Virus record (IMG/VR): IMGVR_UViG_2695420478_000010
Length of the DNA: 20,577 bases
Origin: a virus
Lineage: Duplodnaviria; Heunggongvirae; Uroviricota; Caudoviricetes
Strand: one strand, 5' to 3'
Positions 645-8,018 of this stretch are shown here, one piece after another. The notes under the pieces were generated by a model that did not search any database, had not been told where the DNA came from, and worked only from the letters and a program-made list of their open reading frames with translations. The translations under genes were made by a program, and so were the position numbers. Positions within the stretch are counted from its first letter, which is position 1; every line of letters begins with the position of its first letter.

Positions 645-950
645 TCAGTGAAGCGATCCGGCGTTATTCTTTTTCATCTCTTCCATCATTTTTTCAGTGA
701 GCATTACGCACTGAAAACCCATGTTTTTGATGTCTACGGGTTTCATGCCTTTGTCAGTGGATATCACAGGCAGAATATCCTGATACACATCGCGGTCAGG
801 GTAACTAAGCACACAAAGCGCCCATGATGCCACGGGTGAGGATCCTTCGTCTGTTTCAACCCACCAGCCTGGTGTAGCTGCGCTTATTTGCTGAATCGTG
901 ATCCGTCCGTTGTGCTTGTAAAGTTTTTCACCAAATTTTGGTTCGCTCAT
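645..950 (-). CDS. Hypothetical protein (101 aa)
   Basis: ORF with GGAGAG RBS; its ATG overlaps the stop of the upstream ORF (ATGA), indicating translational coupling. No recognisable motifs. Confidence 0.5.
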   Translation of the reverse strand: MSEPKFGEKLYKHNGRITIQQISAATPGWWVETDEGSSPVASWALCVLSYPDRDVYQDILPVISTDKGMKPVDIKNMGFQCVMLTEKMMEEMKKNNAGSLH

Positions 951-1198
951 GATTTCAACTCTCCGGTTTTAACGTTGATGGTTGTTACCTGTTCCGCTTC
1001 GGCAATCTCCCGTTCTGTCAACGTGGCAAAGTTTGCCGCTGCTGTGGTCATGAATGCGCTTATCAGGTCGGGATGTTCCTTCGCGTATCCTTCCCCTACG
1101 TGTCGGTCTATCGTTCTGATTGCCACCTTTAAGGCCAGCTCTGTTATATCTAACGCTTTATATTTCGGCTCTGTTCTGTCTCTGCGTGTTCTGGTCAT
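947..1198 (-). CDS. Hypothetical protein (about 83 aa from the ATG at 1198; the ORF track's longer start at 1231 lies in the AT-rich stretch)
   Basis: GAGGTGG RBS precedes the ATG at 1198; first gene downstream of the iteron cluster. Confidence 0.45.
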   Translation of the reverse strand: MTRTRRDRTEPKYKALDITELALKVAIRTIDRHVGEGYAKEHPDLISAFMTTAAANFATLTEREIAEAEQVTTINVKTGELKS

Positions 1199-1227
1199 TT
1201 GCCACCTCAATTTATATATATATAGAA

Positions 1228-1550
1228 ACATGTGCGGGTTATGCGGGTTATTGGGTTATCTTAGCGTGCTAACCATTTTTTACCCTTTTATATCAGCATG
1301 TTGCAAAACACCCTGTTTATTATTTGCTCACCACGTAACCCGCAAAACGCTCAAAATAACCCGCAAACGGGGTTTTTTCTGCGGGTTACGCATGACTGTC
1401 CGGTGTTACTTCAGTTATTCGCCTGCGGGTTATAATCGTGCTTTTGCGGGTTATAAATGCCCTTTTGCGGGTTACGTGCGGGTTATTGATTTCCTTTATA
1501 TTCATACACTTAATACACTTATACACAGGATAACCCGCATAACCCGCAAT
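1228..1550. repeat. Iteron cluster: about 12 copies of TGCGGGTTAY in both orientations; probable replication origin
   Basis: Copies at about 1233, 1243, 1380, 1424, 1445, 1466, 1478 (forward) and 1336, 1366, 1530, 1540 (reverse: TAACCCGCA), plus a degenerate copy near 1251; preceded by TATATATATATA at 1212-1225; immediately downstream of the primase gene. Confidence 0.6.
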
Positions 1551-1570
1551 TTTTTTCCTCACACAGGGGA

Positions 1571-3703
1571 TTAATCTTCATCATCAGGCTGGAACATCAG
1601 CACGTAAAAAACATGCTGCTTACCCCCAATCTTGCCCAGCGCCTTTTTTTTGTATCGGCGATCGCTTCCCTTCTCCAGCATTCCGGCAGCATCCAGGGCA
1701 CGCGCAAAATGCGCCGGATTAAATCCCTTCGCTATCTCACTCTCAAACACGTGCGGGAACGTGTAATAGCGCATCTCGTCATCTTCGTTGCGAATGCTCC
1801 CTTTTCTGTATCCGGCAAGCTCTTTAATCGGTAAATCACGCTCATCTGTATTGGGGTACGGAAGGTAGCGGCTAAACCCAAACGACGACAAAAACGCCTC
1901 AGCCTGTTCAACCATCTGTTTAAATTCCCTGTTACCCGTGCCGAACTCCTTCACCCAGGCATTAAAGTTATGCTGTATCGCGTCGCGGCATTCCTGCACG
2001 ACCCAGCCAGTTACATGACCGGAAAGCACAAGCGCGGCCTCCAGTATGGCGAAACGTTCACCCACGCGGTGGACCTGCTCGCCGTAACTCTCCGGTATCA
2101 GGTTGCGCCACCGTTCGCGGCATTCCCTTACCGTGTCCTTTGCCTCCTGCTGGTGGCCTGCCAGCCATTTAACCCACTCACGACCCGCCGCCCCGTGATT
2201 TGCTGTCCAGGCATCCTTTAACGCGTCAGCATGTTCCTTACCGTTGCTGTATTCGTGAAATTTCGTGGCTTTTTCCATCGGAACGTTAAGCAGTCGGACA
2301 AGCTGCCCCGCCTTAACTTTTATCCCCTCACTTTTGAGGAATGTCTCAACGTCCATTTCTCCGGTGCTGATTGCCACCGTTCGCCAGTGTTTGATCTCCC
2401 TGTTGCCGCCATCCTTCGCCCCCTGCAATTTCCCTGAACCGTTAAACAGCGTATAAGCAGACGTTGACACTTCCCGCGCATTTCCGGCCTGGCCTATCTC
2501 ATCCAGTGGTAAAAGCCCGTCATTATGGGCCTCGGCCTCATTGGCAATACCTAACGCCGTGCCGTACCAGGTCAGCCGCTGCGCGTCCGGCTCTCCCCAT
2601 AAACTTGATGCGATGTTCTGCGTGGTGGTCTTACCTGCCGATGACTGTTCGAAAAGATGCACCCCGAAGCCGTCAGCACCCACAAGGCCAATTAAAGGCG
2701 CTGCCAGTGACGTTGCCACACCCAGTATCATTGAGGCATTACCGCCAGCCAGCCGCGCCACGCTGTCGCGCCAGCCATCCGCCGTGCCCGCCACGGAATA
2801 ACCGTTAATCGCGGCGCTTTTTCCGGTAAACAGGATCGGTTTTTCAGATTCACCAATGATCGAACCGTCCGGCATGATGTACGCGCCAAAATGCCAGCCC
2901 GTTGTTGTGCTTAACTGCCATTCCTCATGGCTTCCGCTTAACTGCATCCAGTCCGCCAGGATTGCCCTGTATTTGCCGTTGGTTGTCACGTTCAGCCCGT
3001 GATCTTTAAGTAACCGCCAGCCGTCACGGTCGCCGATACCACCACACGGGATCGCCATTGTGATGACTTCATGGTTTGCGGTTTTTTTCCAGCGCATCAC
3101 GCGGTAATGCTCTTTACCGATCGTCCCCGTTCCCAGTAGTTCAAGCGGAGAACATAACCACGTCTCAGGCCGGATAATTTCGCCTGACTGCTTATCCACT
3201 TTGGGCGTTACCCAGAAAACACCATCGGCGCGACTTTCAACGCGTGGCTTTAATTCGTCATCGCTATGGCTTCCGGTATCTTTTTTCTTTACCGGAAACT
3301 CAATAACCAGACCATCAGAAAGATTCTGCCGCTCACGGGCCAGATATTCGCGCCAGTTCTCCACCTTCTGACCGTGCATACCCTCAGGATAAAAATTTGC
3401 ATCCTGTACACCAGCCGCCGCCAGCTTTTGACCAATCGCCTTGATCATTACTGGTGCAAGATGTCCGGCCCTGAATATGCGCACGGATTTTCTGCCTTCC
3501 GGCACAATTTGCAGCTTATCCAGTTCTGATAACTGCTGCTCCCCAAGCCACACAGGAGGCACATTATCGCCGGATGCGGGGCCGTCCTGCTCCTGCCACT
3601 GTTTTGCATGTGCCCACGCATCACTACCCGCGAAAATAATCACCTCTGTGTCTTTGTGTTTTATTCCGCGTGGCTGTTTTTTTACGTTCGGTGCCAGTTT
3701 CAT
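1571..3703 (-). CDS. P4-type primase/helicase (alpha-like replication protein, DUF927-type NTPase)
   Basis: 710-aa ORF with AGGGGT RBS; Walker A-like FEQSSAGKTTTQ and Walker B-like LLPLDEIG; start overlaps the upstream ORF stop (ATGA). Confidence 0.88.
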   Translation of the reverse strand: MKLAPNVKKQPRGIKHKDTEVIIFAGSDAWAHAKQWQEQDGPASGDNVPPVWLGEQQLSELDKLQIVPEGRKSVRIFRAGHLAPVMIKAIGQKLAAAGVQDANFYPEGMHGQKVENWREYLARERQNLSDGLVIEFPVKKKDTGSHSDDELKPRVESRADGVFWVTPKVDKQSGEIIRPETWLCSPLELLGTGTIGKEHYRVMRWKKTANHEVITMAIPCGGIGDRDGWRLLKDHGLNVTTNGKYRAILADWMQLSGSHEEWQLSTTTGWHFGAYIMPDGSIIGESEKPILFTGKSAAINGYSVAGTADGWRDSVARLAGGNASMILGVATSLAAPLIGLVGADGFGVHLFEQSSAGKTTTQNIASSLWGEPDAQRLTWYGTALGIANEAEAHNDGLLPLDEIGQAGNAREVSTSAYTLFNGSGKLQGAKDGGNREIKHWRTVAISTGEMDVETFLKSEGIKVKAGQLVRLLNVPMEKATKFHEYSNGKEHADALKDAWTANHGAAGREWVKWLAGHQQEAKDTVRECRERWRNLIPESYGEQVHRVGERFAILEAALVLSGHVTGWVVQECRDAIQHNFNAWVKEFGTGNREFKQMVEQAEAFLSSFGFSRYLPYPNTDERDLPIKELAGYRKGSIRNEDDEMRYYTFPHVFESEIAKGFNPAHFARALDAAGMLEKGSDRRYKKKALGKIGGKQHVFYVLMFQPDDED

Positions 3704-5471: not shown

Positions 5472-5696
5472 TTACGCTGCCTTGCCTGAATTAATACGAT
5501 CCCGGCTTTTAACCCATTCCATAACCTCGGAAAGCAGCCAACCTACTGAACGACCACCCAGATTACGGCGTGACGGGAAATTCCCTTTTTTCTCCAGTTC
5601 GTAGCGTGTAGTGCGGCACACTCCTGTTAACTTACGGCATTCATCCTCACGGATTACGCGATCTGATAGTGATTGAAATTGTGTATTTTGATTCAT
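5472..5696 (-). CDS. alpA: AlpA-family phage transcriptional regulator / excisionase-like HTH protein
   Basis: 74-aa ORF; central region LTGVCRTTRYELEKKGNFP and C-terminal SVGWLLSEVMEWV match the AlpA/Vis (HTH_17) pattern. Confidence 0.7.
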   Translation of the reverse strand: MNQNTQFQSLSDRVIREDECRKLTGVCRTTRYELEKKGNFPSRRNLGGRSVGWLLSEVMEWVKSRDRINSGKAA

Positions 5697-5787: not shown

Positions 5788-6561
5788 TCACTTTTTACGT
5801 TTTTGTTGAGATTCACGCCCCAAATACTTTTGCCATGTCTGCCAATGTGTTTTTGGAAATTCTATCCCTCTGGATGCAGCTATAGAATCAATTAAATCTG
5901 CTATTTTAGGTAATGATTCCGTGTCCAGGTCTACATCACCCATTTCTGGAATAAGTTTAATTAAAGAGTAAATAACCTCATTCCTTTTTGACGATGCTTT
6001 TGGGCTATCTTCTGTTATCTTCGGGAAGTCTCCCGTATTTTTTATATTATCTAAATCACTAGCCATCACACACAAATAGTTAACATCAAATTCATAACCA
6101 CCCTTACAAAAAACATACATGAGATTATCATCACCATACTTATTCGTAAGATGAGAACATTTTATATATTGTCTCATGCTAAATTCGACATCAGCAAAAA
6201 CATATGCCGGAGTATAATAAAACCCTGATAAGCTGCTAACATAATAACATTTGATAGAATTCCCTACAGGACCAATAATGGCACTATCTAAAAATTCAGT
6301 GTCACCAGTTAAACCAACTGTAAAATTACTTCCAAAAACAGCAGATTCATCATTGAAAGGATATTTTATTAATTCTTCCTCATTACAACCATTGATAAAA
6401 TGACATAATGAAAAATTGAATTTTTTAGCATCAATTTTTGGTATATATACAGAAATATTAAGAGCACCTATATATGCGTAATGATAAAGATCTTTTATTG
6501 CACAGCCTAACTTTTCTGCCGCTTCAGGTAACGGATAATAGAGTCTTTTAGGTAATTTCAT
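5788..6561 (-). CDS. Hypothetical protein (257 aa), AT-rich accessory gene translationally coupled to the integrase
   Basis: Long uninterrupted ORF in visibly AT-rich DNA; GAAGGTGG RBS inside the integrase 3' end; ATG overlaps the integrase TGA (ATGA). No motif I can recognise. Confidence 0.7.
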   Translation of the reverse strand: MKLPKRLYYPLPEAAEKLGCAIKDLYHYAYIGALNISVYIPKIDAKKFNFSLCHFINGCNEEELIKYPFNDESAVFGSNFTVGLTGDTEFLDSAIIGPVGNSIKCYYVSSLSGFYYTPAYVFADVEFSMRQYIKCSHLTNKYGDDNLMYVFCKGGYEFDVNYLCVMASDLDNIKNTGDFPKITEDSPKASSKRNEVIYSLIKLIPEMGDVDLDTESLPKIADLIDSIAASRGIEFPKTHWQTWQKYLGRESQQKRKK

Positions 6562-7778
6562 TTGGCCACCTTCAGCATAACAATATTTTCATGATTTCCA
6601 GCCAGCACATCGAGGCGCTCAACCCACAGATTCAGAGCGTCCCGCTTCGCCTGTAAATAGCGTGAATGGTTATAGGTTTTTTGCTGACCGGGCATCTGAT
6701 GCGCTGTGATGTGCTCCACGATATGCGGATCGACACCTAAATCGTTCAGCATCGTTGTAAACGTGTGGCGAAAGTCATGCAGTGACCAATGTTCCTGGTT
6801 AAGCCGCTTATGCGCATTTCGCCCATATTGCGCTACCGTGGTATCTTTTTTCAGTTCTCCGAGCAATAACCCTGTATGCCGGTTCTGATCCACCAGCTTC
6901 TGAATGAACGGCAAAATGCCATCGGGGATTGGCCTGAATATCGTTACCTTCGTTTTGCTGTGCTCTTTTGGCACTGTCCACAACATTTCTTTCAGATCCC
7001 ATTCTTTGATCTCTGAAAGTCTGACCTCTGCAGTTCTGCACCCGAACACAATCAGCAAGCGCATTAACGCGCTGTAGTAAGGCGCGAACACATCACCATC
7101 AATAGCGCGTAAAATTTCCTTTAATTCGCTGTTACTGTGCACCCTCTCGCGAATTTCTGCTCTCTTACCCACATCGCTGACGATCAAATCGTCCAGGGCA
7201 TTACTGAACGCGTAGCGTCTCCTGCGGCAGAACTTTAGCGCCTGTTTGCAGGTTTGCATGACGTGCCCCGCTGCTACTGGTGCTTTTTTTCGTACACGGT
7301 CAAAACATGCGATCCACTGCCTTGTGTCGCATTTATCAAGAGGAATTGCCCCTATATGGCAAATGATGTGCTTATCCATACGTTGCACCAGCTTTATGTA
7401 GTCTTTGCGGTTATCCTTCGCATATTCCTCCAGCCAGTAGTTAATCGCCTCCTTCACCGTAACGGGTTTTAGCGCTTCCTGTACTGTGGCGCACAACTCA
7501 TAACGGGGGTTTTTACCCTCAGCCAGCCATGCCCGGCACTGTGCGCGTTTTTCCCTTGCAGCTTTCAGCGACAATTCAGGGTAAGCCCCCAGCTTTAACC
7601 GCTCTGCGGCAACCTCACGGCCTCCCGTTCGGTACCGGAAATACCAGGTTAATTTTCCGCCTTTTGAGTGTTTAATCTCCAGCCCGCCCCCGTCGGAGTA
7701 AAAACGCTCTTTTTCTGCCTGGACAGCCGCCAATTTTTTTAATGTCGAATCGCTCAGTTTGTTTAGTGCTTTTCCCAC
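6558..7778 (-). CDS. int: Tyrosine site-specific integrase, P4-like family (GTG start)
   Basis: 406-aa ORF with AAGAGGA RBS; N-terminal arm-binding-type region (GGGLEIKHSKGGKLTWYFRYR); C-terminal catalytic region LHDFRHTF ... HSRY. Confidence 0.92.
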   Translation of the reverse strand: MGKALNKLSDSTLKKLAAVQAEKERFYSDGGGLEIKHSKGGKLTWYFRYRTGGREVAAERLKLGAYPELSLKAAREKRAQCRAWLAEGKNPRYELCATVQEALKPVTVKEAINYWLEEYAKDNRKDYIKLVQRMDKHIICHIGAIPLDKCDTRQWIACFDRVRKKAPVAAGHVMQTCKQALKFCRRRRYAFSNALDDLIVSDVGKRAEIRERVHSNSELKEILRAIDGDVFAPYYSALMRLLIVFGCRTAEVRLSEIKEWDLKEMLWTVPKEHSKTKVTIFRPIPDGILPFIQKLVDQNRHTGLLLGELKKDTTVAQYGRNAHKRLNQEHWSLHDFRHTFTTMLNDLGVDPHIVEHITAHQMPGQQKTYNHSRYLQAKRDALNLWVERLDVLAGNHENIVMLKVAK

Positions 7779-7966: not shown

Positions 7967-8018
7967 ATACGGGTATTTCTCAGCCTTCACGCAGAAGGGC
8001 ACCCCGAGTCGTTTGGTT
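7967..8018 (-). ncRNA. Truncated thiM TPP riboswitch aptamer (promoter-proximal arm only), interrupted by the element
   Basis: Minus strand reads AACCAAACGACTCGGGGTGCCCTTCTGCGTGAAGGCTGAGAAATACCCGTAT, matching the E. coli thiM aptamer as I recall it; the expected continuation CACCTGATCTGGATAATGCCAGCG is replaced by element sequence. Confidence 0.8.

Follow-up and report, generated by a model that had tools for sequence, protein, structure and literature searches.

The 372-bp gap at positions 1199-1570 of the viral DNA analysed here (IMG/VR record IMGVR_UViG_2695420478_000010; 20,577 nucleotides, hereafter the window) is very probably the vegetative replication origin of a capsid-forming phage-inducible chromosomal island (cf-PICI) of the EcCIEDL933 type. 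It holds an array of the decamer TGCGGGTTAY directly 3′ of the gene for a 710-residue initiator, Rep, and these decamers would be the iterons recognized by the C-terminal domain of that protein. An iteron origin read by the adjacent initiator is what the original prediction had proposed from the sequence, and position, architecture, homology and covariation all lend it support. Origins of this kind are already known, and experiments have been done on one of them, that of a sister island with another replicon cassette; the accessible literature contained no description or test of the present Rep-iteron pair. A full-text search with the iteron string returned unrelated primer sequences only, and the string does not occur in the text of the supplement to the 2018 PICI paper, the figure listing PICI iterons lying outside the text search.

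A repeat array between rep and the next gene

The gap separates two genes of the - strand, extending from the stop codon of the 710-aa open reading frame (ORF), rep, to the RefSeq start of the next gene. Exact TGCGGGTTAY occurs 11 times between 1233 and 1548 (316 bp), with seven copies on the + strand and four on the - strand, and nowhere else in the window (Table 1). About a dozen copies in both orientations within some 320 bp had been anticipated; the extent and the orientations stand, and the number becomes 11 exact copies and one degenerate copy. Start-to-start spacings are 9, 93, 21, 24, 44, 21, 21, 11, 53 and 9 bp, among which are steps of 9 bp (abutting copies), 11 bp and 21 bp (two helical turns). 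The 9-mer GCGGGTTAY matches 12 times in the window, whereas 100 dinucleotide shuffles averaged 0.34 matches and never exceeded 2. Across ~530 kb of related Enterobacterales loci without a TGCGGGTTAY array, the decamer was found as six isolated single copies, and by estimate chance would scatter ~20 copies over a 5.4-Mb host genome (the counting covered the window and the ~530 kb of loci). In the DNA counted, the motif is not widespread.

The array region is matched in 273 of 5,426 complete E. coli genomes (287 matches, all chromosomal), and among the matches listed each one that reached the right-hand end of the query ran into a gene of the DUF927 family, to which Rep belongs. The plasmid collection gave no match to the array region, and the phage collection a single partial one, covering 18% of the query in an unannotated record of 2,183 bases. 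A chance cluster, or a dispersed repeat of the REP/ERIC type without a role in the element, can be virtually dismissed: none of the 100 shuffles reached the observed count, only single copies were seen in the other loci, and the matches are chromosomal and linked to a DUF927 rep, with nothing in plasmids and one partial match in phages.

Scans for other signals returned little. An Rfam scan of 900-1900 detected no RNA family, with one sub-threshold chance match to a CRISPR direct repeat, and neither the IHF consensus nor GATC sites have an exact match in the array. Two program-made ORFs drawn across the array (1386-1562, - strand, and 888-1574, + strand) were rejected as genes; they are unannotated in RefSeq, and conservation is impossible given the 210-bp gap and the different repeats of sister elements.

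The initiator and its proposed pairing with the repeats

Several matches place Rep among the DUF927 initiator-helicases, the family of SaPIbov1 Rep and SCCmec Cch. The Pfam DUF927 domain spans residues 171-438 (E = 1.4e-48). Among known structures Rep matches SaPIbov1 Rep (PDB 8tch_A, annotated 'initiation of replication protein with helicase activity'; E = 2.5e-12 from the single sequence, 6.8e-16 when a profile was used) and Cch (5dgk; 2.5e-5), and its sole NCBIfam match is to the SCCmec Cch1 replicative helicase model (3.1e-10, below the cut-off). The neighbour of the array had been described as a primase/helicase gene. The placement of the array directly 3′ of it and its helicase family are upheld, whereas the primase designation, whose source is PHROG family names only, is not: Pfam and NCBIfam recognize no primase, Toprim or primase_Cterm family in Rep, and BLASTP detects no similarity to P4 alpha (E = 0.45).

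DUF927 proteins such as Cch are relatives of SaPIbov1 Rep, and the Reps of Staphylococcus aureus pathogenicity islands (SaPIs) are self-loading helicases with a C-terminal winged-helix domain that binds iterons directly downstream of rep; in the SaPI origin an AT-rich centre is flanked on both sides by two or more iterons, the two sides pointing in opposite directions (PMC9371898, PMC7581432). In the window, residues 596-710 of Rep would be the counterpart of this domain. Their AlphaFold2 (AF2) model has a mean predicted local distance difference test score (pLDDT) of 83.9, and its best Foldseek match is again 8tch_A (probability 1.00, TM-score 0.56, E = 9.6e-3); another top match is TcpK (5vfx), a winged-helix protein solved on oriT DNA (TM-score about 0.55, E ~1e-2). 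Pfam HTH_56, a domain of Cch, is found at residues 635-704 under the gathering score (6.8e-4). Since the E-values are ~1e-2, we regard the model as supportive, and not as proof, of a winged-helix-like fold.

We compared 80 loci encoding Rep relatives (44-74% identity, one genome per species), 72 of which, from many Enterobacterales genera, informed the geometry. In nearly all usable loci the 450 bp that follow the rep stop codon contain some 8-9-mer in 4-13 copies, and this repeat changes with the lineage; there are at least 15 kinds, including GTTGGTTCA (34 loci), GTTGTCTCA (9 loci), GTCGGTTCA, ACGGGTTA, GTGGGTTA, TGACACACT and GTTGTACCA. The arrangement around them is shared. Two tandem iterons begin a median of 25 nt after the rep stop codon (22 nt in the window); a spacer comes next, and then inverted iterons, the outer ones of which are spaced by 21 bp. 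Spacers measure 43-47, 54-57 or about 65 nt, in steps of about one helical turn, with a median A+T content of 79%. A protein-bound origin predicts such constant geometry with changing repeats, whereas a chance cluster or a generic repeat does not.

The identity of the repeat also follows the C-terminal domain. Rep pairs were binned by the identity of the helicase core (residues 170-600); at matched core identity the C-terminal domains are 65-85% identical when the iteron is the same and 39-62% identical when it differs, for instance 85% against 62% at 90-100% core identity and 65% against 41% at 60-70%, and the direction is the same in every bin. Mutual information with iteron class is highest for residues 635-710, at about twice the level of the rest of Rep, and the predicted wing segment (about 682-702) is class-specific. 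A search of viral contigs for the double iteron yielded 71 stretches. Among these, each of the 41 clusters of the core type lies directly beside a DUF927 rep (82-100% identity), and a DUF927 rep also adjoins the core in five of five E. coli loci.

Comparison with the sister island EcCICFT073 shows, at the level of aligned DNA, that the replicon, the Rep body together with its iterons, is exchanged between islands as a cassette. The DNA of the two islands is 90-94% identical across DUF4222 and the start of rep as far as codon ~140; it is so again beyond the origin, from within the next gene to SSB. Homology stops at 3282 and resumes at 1126, inside the 83-aa gene, and the segment from 3281 to 1127 is unrelated. 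The swapped segment comprises the Rep body, the C-terminal domain and the iterons, with DUF927 and 11 copies of TGCGGGTTAY in the window and primase_Cterm and 11 copies of TCTACC in EcCICFT073. A third cassette occupies the same slot in two viral contigs (L130 and L135), where a Rep 49% identical to residues 313-776 of P4 alpha is followed by at least nine copies of CTGTTCACC, a sequence that includes the P4 type-1 repeat TGTTCACC. In L130 these iterons lie at 9104-8700, 3′ of a 604-aa Rep. The presence of CTGTTCACC in these contigs means that the P4 type-1 repeat is used by relatives of the island and not by the island of the window. The original prediction had given TGTTCACC as the P4 repeat and had set the window motif apart from it, correctly on both counts: the window lacks TGTTCACC, and P4 lacks GCGGGTTA.

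The cassette boundaries bear on a regulatory explanation, in which the repeats would be operators through which an island regulator (AlpA, a PerC-like protein or the 83-aa protein) controls the downstream operon. The array does lie upstream of a same-strand gene cluster, and (TA)6 and the last iterons come within 35 nt of a start codon. A scan of 1100-1700 found no sigma-70-like promoter on either strand, however, and no terminator on the coding (-) strand; two terminator-like hairpins in this interval are both on the non-coding + strand and are built of iteron sequence. AlpA, DUF4222, the 3′ part of the 83-aa gene and SSB are ~90-94% identical in EcCICFT073, where the repeats are entirely different. 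Being ~90% identical there, AlpA, DUF4222, SSB and the small ORF cannot set the repeat specificity. The repeat sequence instead follows the Rep C-terminal domain, and part of the array occurs in other genomic contexts (below), which together make the operator explanation very unlikely.

The 5′ end of rep, outside the exchanged segment, encodes a domain common to Reps of another family. The N-terminus is identical to that of EcCICFT073 Rep at 134 of 163 residues (82%), with no similarity further on. Residues 1-140 are modelled as an alpha/beta domain (pLDDT about 85) for which Pfam, PDB and fold searches gave no match, and many Rep relatives in other genera align from about residue 140 onward only. 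Four proteins of 104-160 aa (P0129, P0140, P0146 and P0151), encoded on long contigs of Morganella, Yersinia, Providencia and Klebsiella, match only the C-terminal domain of Rep; they may be remnants of disrupted rep genes, or proteins that bind iterons on their own.

Predicted core origin, accessory module and proposed mechanism

The array had been presented as one unit; comparison with relatives resolves it instead into two, a core at 1424-1548 joined to an accessory module at 1213-1365. In the core, four direct and two inverted iterons flank a 43-bp spacer that is a putative melting region. An alternating TA tract had been noted beside the iterons, and (TA)6 is indeed present; its place, however, is the outer edge of the accessory module, while the conserved AT-rich spacer is that of the core, at 1487-1529. 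The core spacer contains a match to the DnaA box. Among 20 distinct core spacers of the TGCGGGTTAY class, 17 have an exact box at the same position and the other three are off by one base. This conservation spans two unrelated spacer families that differ in length and sequence, with the box reading TTATACACA or TTATCCACA. The origin spacers of the other iteron classes examined contain no exact box, so that any involvement of DnaA would be specific to this lineage. The pattern of conservation suggests that host DnaA may assist at the core spacer of this class.

A second spacer motif was noted across iteron classes. Of 72 origin spacers, 51 carry a strand-specific sequence resembling TGATTTATAAGG (other strand, 4; shuffles, 6.9), the scan having covered the core spacers of loci L007-L086. 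The copy in the window, TGAATATAAAGG at 1493-1504 on the - strand, is weak, with four mismatches. Either a conserved portion of Rep or some host factor may recognize this motif.

Clusters of the TGCGGGTTAY class come in three types: rep-adjacent cores with the orientation ++++-- (123 or 143 bp), modules of 153 bp with the orientation +++---, and fused arrays such as that of the window, with 11-12 iterons over ~314 bp. The left part of the window array aligns with separate modules at ~80% column identity. Other islands, such as the one in strain JNE21-009, are 'split': 7.5-10.5 kb separate the core from a module downstream, which sits just past terL and a small ORF and within a few hundred bases of the island end, and its orientation relative to rep is the same in the four split elements aligned. 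Complete E. coli genomes contain a separate distal module in 137 cases and the fused form in about 141. Because sequence resembling a T-arm flanks the modules, tRNA genes were sought near the distal modules; none was found.

The position of the split module could suggest that the repeats are packaging signals, accessory cos or pac sites for the TerS of the island. The island encodes its own HNH, TerS and TerL proteins, and the module of split elements sits just past terL near the island end. Yet arrays adjoin rep in 72 rep-centred loci from many genera (the terminase content of these loci lay outside the comparison), the array of the window is about 6 kb from terS, and the repeats follow the C-terminal domain of Rep. 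Packaging is an extremely unlikely explanation.

A different role for the left unit (1213-1389, with the lone iteron included) deserves more weight. Rep-titrating or handcuffing copy-number loci are known from plasmids, P1 incA and F incC among them, and this unit might be such a locus or a cis enhancer resembling crr of P4, with the origin confined to the core at 1424-1548. This possibility, which overlaps with the reading we favour, is the lesser one but a real one. The module is separable from the core in 137 E. coli genomes, P4 likewise has two clusters, crr and ori, 4.5 kb apart, and the core alone stands beside rep in roughly half of the genome loci (flanks reaching 2.5 kb). The module nevertheless shares the design of the core, with convergent iteron sets about an AT-rich spacer, and has a (TA)n tract in addition; by this design it looks like a second origin. 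Intact modules that accompany non-cognate Reps fit neither control nor enhancement by a cis-encoded Rep. Such modules, of GCGGGTTA and the '+++---' form, were found in three islands with a Rep of another family, either the EcCICFT073 or the P4-alpha type (L128, 475-605; L130, 375-528; L135, 356-509). No homologue of the DUF927 C-terminal domain was detected in these three elements, and no second ORF resembling that domain was found near distal or orphan modules, which leaves the role of the left module uncertain. Orphan modules may have arisen by recent mosaic recombination or may be served by Rep in trans. We consider the left unit to be probably a second Rep-loading or a Rep-titrating site; given the parallel with the two clusters of P4, a second loading site, a crr-like enhancer and a control locus are all functions that the module may have.

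For an origin at 1199-1570 read by its own Rep, we infer the following course of initiation by analogy with the SaPIs. Like SaPI Rep, the protein would be made after induction of a helper phage. Its C-terminal domains would bind both sets of convergent iterons in the core (four iterons at 1424-1486 and two at 1530-1548), the TTAY ends of which point inward, and Rep hexamers would form on both flanks of the spacer (43 bp, 72% A+T). This stretch would then melt and Rep would load itself as the replicative helicase, with possible assistance from host DnaA through the conserved spacer box in the TGCGGGTTAY lineage. The left part, 1213-1389, is a second unit of the same design, fused to the core here and located at the far end of the island in sister elements. 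A more speculative elaboration, which we think unlikely, is a fused bipartite origin in which the core is combined with a portable Rep-binding module also able to act from kilobases away (compare crr of P4), in which orphan modules are perhaps acted on by Rep that a co-resident satellite supplies in trans and in which DnaA is perhaps recruited. If orphan modules are not relics of recombination, action of Rep in trans would amount to replication cross-talk or competition between satellites, and recruitment of DnaA, if true, would depart from the self-sufficient SaPI paradigm.

Characterized replicons provide a context for this scheme. The Rep-ori replicon of SaPIbov1 was reportedly described by Ubeda et al. 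in 2007. The window resembles it in having a DUF927-family Rep (8tch), an origin directly 3′ of rep, a C-terminal domain as the proposed recognition module and proposed self-loading, and its opposed iteron sets around an AT-rich region (4 + and 2 - in the core, 2-3 + and 2 - in the module) parallel those of the SaPIbov1 origin, which has 6-12 short iterons. Unlike SaPIbov1, the island has a Gram-negative host, iterons of 9-10 bp instead of penta- or hexamers, no detectable separate or fused primase gene, an extra N-terminal Rep domain of 140 aa common to an unrelated Rep family, a spacer with a DnaA box, and a portable second iteron module. In iteron plasmids (P1 incC/incA, F, R6K) there are likewise direct repeats at ~21 bp, an AT-rich region, a DnaA box and auxiliary clusters; plasmid Reps, however, are not helicases and recruit host DnaB, whereas Rep here is an AAA+ helicase and its iteron sets are convergent.

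Among Gram-negative PICIs the SaPI-type organisation of the origin is shared (Fillol-Salom et al. 2018, PMC6092414). The rep-ori region of EcCICFT073 maintains a temperature-sensitive plasmid, and deletion of the origin impairs this maintenance (PMC6092414). The island has the same synteny as EcCICFT073 (DUF4222, rep, origin, small ORF, SSB, PerC, capsid) with flanks 90-94% identical, and EcCICFT073 similarly carries 11 short repeats in both orientations in a ~290-bp gap 3′ of rep; they differ in that its Rep body is of the P4-family primase_Cterm type with TCTACC iterons, as opposed to DUF927 with TGCGGGTTAY. The satellite phage P4 is also comparable as a satellite replicon with a single multifunctional initiator-helicase and two clusters of iterons (8 bp in P4) in both orientations. 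In its annotated record crr (ten type-1 repeats) is placed 46 nt past the alpha gene and the origin lies 4.5 kb away, an arrangement that split sister elements resemble in having one cluster 3′ of the initiator gene and the other kilobases distant. Unlike P4, the window has a Rep without detectable similarity to alpha, lacks TGTTCACC and has its clusters fused.

Several of these observations weigh against an origin at 1199-1570 that is read by its own Rep. The Gram-negative PICI origin that has been tested, that of EcCICFT073, uses a Rep of another family. The cluster directly 3′ of alpha in P4 is crr and not the start of replication, so proximity to rep alone does not pinpoint initiation. Modules of GCGGGTTA lie beside non-cognate Reps in three elements. 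The fold support for the C-terminal domain is marginal, with Foldseek E-values of ~1e-2 and, across 26 homologues, one HTH_56 match, which is below the cut-off; the AlphaFold model of full-length Rep is poor (pLDDT 45) and is a weak echo of the sequence matches. Finally, the covariation is inflated by phylogeny because related sequences were counted, and matching by core identity is a partial control.

The island and its distribution

The window joins the island to chromosomal genes (metG, a yeh-type fimbrial operon and rcnB/rcnA/rcnR). On the - strand the order of the island is int, a 257-aa ORF, AlpA, small ORFs with DUF4222, Rep, the array, two small ORFs and SSB (Table 1). In strain 10671, whose array region is 100% identical (locus L001), the island continues with PerC, major capsid protein, prohead protease, portal, head closure and connector proteins, HNH, TerS and TerL, and has no tail genes. 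The gene set of a cf-PICI (~15 kb, with its own capsid-to-terminase genes) is present in full when the int, alpA, rep and SSB genes of the window are taken together with the remainder annotated in L001 and L160. The attachment core, AGAAATACCCGTAT at 7967-7980, has the same sequence as the core reported for EcCI224 at the rcnR ('frmR')-thiM site, which indicates that the island shares its integration site with a classical PICI of different Rep. The element is a capsid-forming PICI of the EcCIEDL933 type integrated at rcnR-thiM.

EcCIEDL933 is the prototype cf-PICI, for which the gene set has been defined and replication upon helper induction described; the accessible text of that paper contains no dissection of the origin and no iteron sequence (10.1101/2022.09.08.507074). 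The array of the window differs from that of the island in O157:H7 strain Xuzhou21 by one TA unit and one substitution over 391 bp, with all 11 iterons identical, and the Xuzhou21 element is listed as the same as that of EDL933 (2018 supplement, PMC6092414). By way of the Xuzhou21 copy, the origin of EcCIEDL933 is essentially identical to that of the window and the gene set is the same; the attachment site differs, being roxA-phoQ in O157:H7 and rcnR-thiM here.

These comparisons fix the predicted origin, and the probable Rep recognition sequence, for the prototype cf-PICI family, which is widespread in E. coli. Such information could be used in the engineering of satellites as delivery vehicles and in island annotation. 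The pairing of at least 15 iteron variants with Rep C-terminal domains provides a specificity table for the study of DNA reading by winged-helix domains, and the separable module and conserved DnaA box are testable leads on replicon control. Current understanding is not overturned.

Table 1. Positions of predicted origin, rep and island features in the window
Feature	Position	Strand	Basis or remark
First gene downstream of the predicted origin, 83 aa, phrog_1231	947-1198	-	RefSeq annotation of identical locus; PHROG match
Shine-Dalgarno GAGGTG of the 83-aa gene	1203-1208	-	Sequence
Accessory module: (TA)6, three direct iterons (third degenerate), AT-rich spacer, two inverted iterons	1213-1365		Alignment with separate modules
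(TA)6 tract, outer edge of module	1213-1224		Tract core TATATATATA invariant in 8/8 aligned module copies
Iteron TGCGGGTTAT	1233-1242	+	Exact match
Iteron TGCGGGTTAT	1242-1251	+	Exact match, abuts 1233 copy
Degenerate iteron TTGGGTTAT	1251-1259	+	Intact GCGGGTTAT in sister elements
Module spacer	1260-1334		A+T 63%, measured over 1252-1334 with the degenerate iteron included
Iteron TGCGGGTTAC	1335-1344	-	Exact match
Iteron TGCGGGTTAT	1356-1365	-	Exact match, 21 bp from 1335 copy
Lone iteron TGCGGGTTAC, between the two units	1380-1389	+	Exact match
Predicted core origin: four direct iterons, 43-bp AT-rich spacer, two inverted iterons	1424-1548		Adjoins rep in every relative
Iteron TGCGGGTTAT	1424-1433	+	Exact match
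Iteron TGCGGGTTAT	1445-1454	+	Exact match, 21 bp from 1424 copy
Iteron TGCGGGTTAC	1466-1475	+	Exact match, 21 bp from 1445 copy
Iteron TGCGGGTTAT	1477-1486	+	Exact match, 11 bp from 1466 copy
Core spacer, putative melting region	1487-1529		A+T 72% versus window average of 53%
DnaA-box match TTATACACA (consensus TTATNCACA)	1519-1527	+	2 nt from rep-proximal iteron pair
Iteron TGCGGGTTAT	1530-1539	-	Exact match
Iteron TGCGGGTTAT	1539-1548	-	Exact match, abuts 1530 copy; 22 nt from rep stop codon
rep, 710-aa DUF927 initiator-helicase, SaPIbov1 Rep / SCCmec Cch family	1571-3703	-	Pfam, PDB, NCBIfam
Rep C-terminal domain (aa 596-710), putative iteron-recognition domain, winged-helix-like	1574-1918	-	AF2 model, covariation
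Region coding for the N-terminal ~140 aa of Rep	3282-3703	-	Common to Reps of another family
AlpA	5472-5696	-
257-aa ORF, about 32% G+C, between int and alpA	5788-6561	-	No Pfam or PADLOC match
Tyrosine integrase (int)	6558-7778	-

Four unannotated ORFs of the island gave no match in a PADLOC scan. The slot between int and alpA often holds accessory cargo in PICIs, and in EcCI224 it contains a DUF6387 protein. In the strain 10671 island, 4-5 copies of a unit of ~70-80 bp with CCTCCTCAAATTGAGG...AATCA(A/G)TGGGTTAG are found at ~5300-5800 of L001, between the last island gene and the attachment core. This stretch corresponds to DNA beyond the left end of the window, and at the corresponding end split islands have their distal iteron module.

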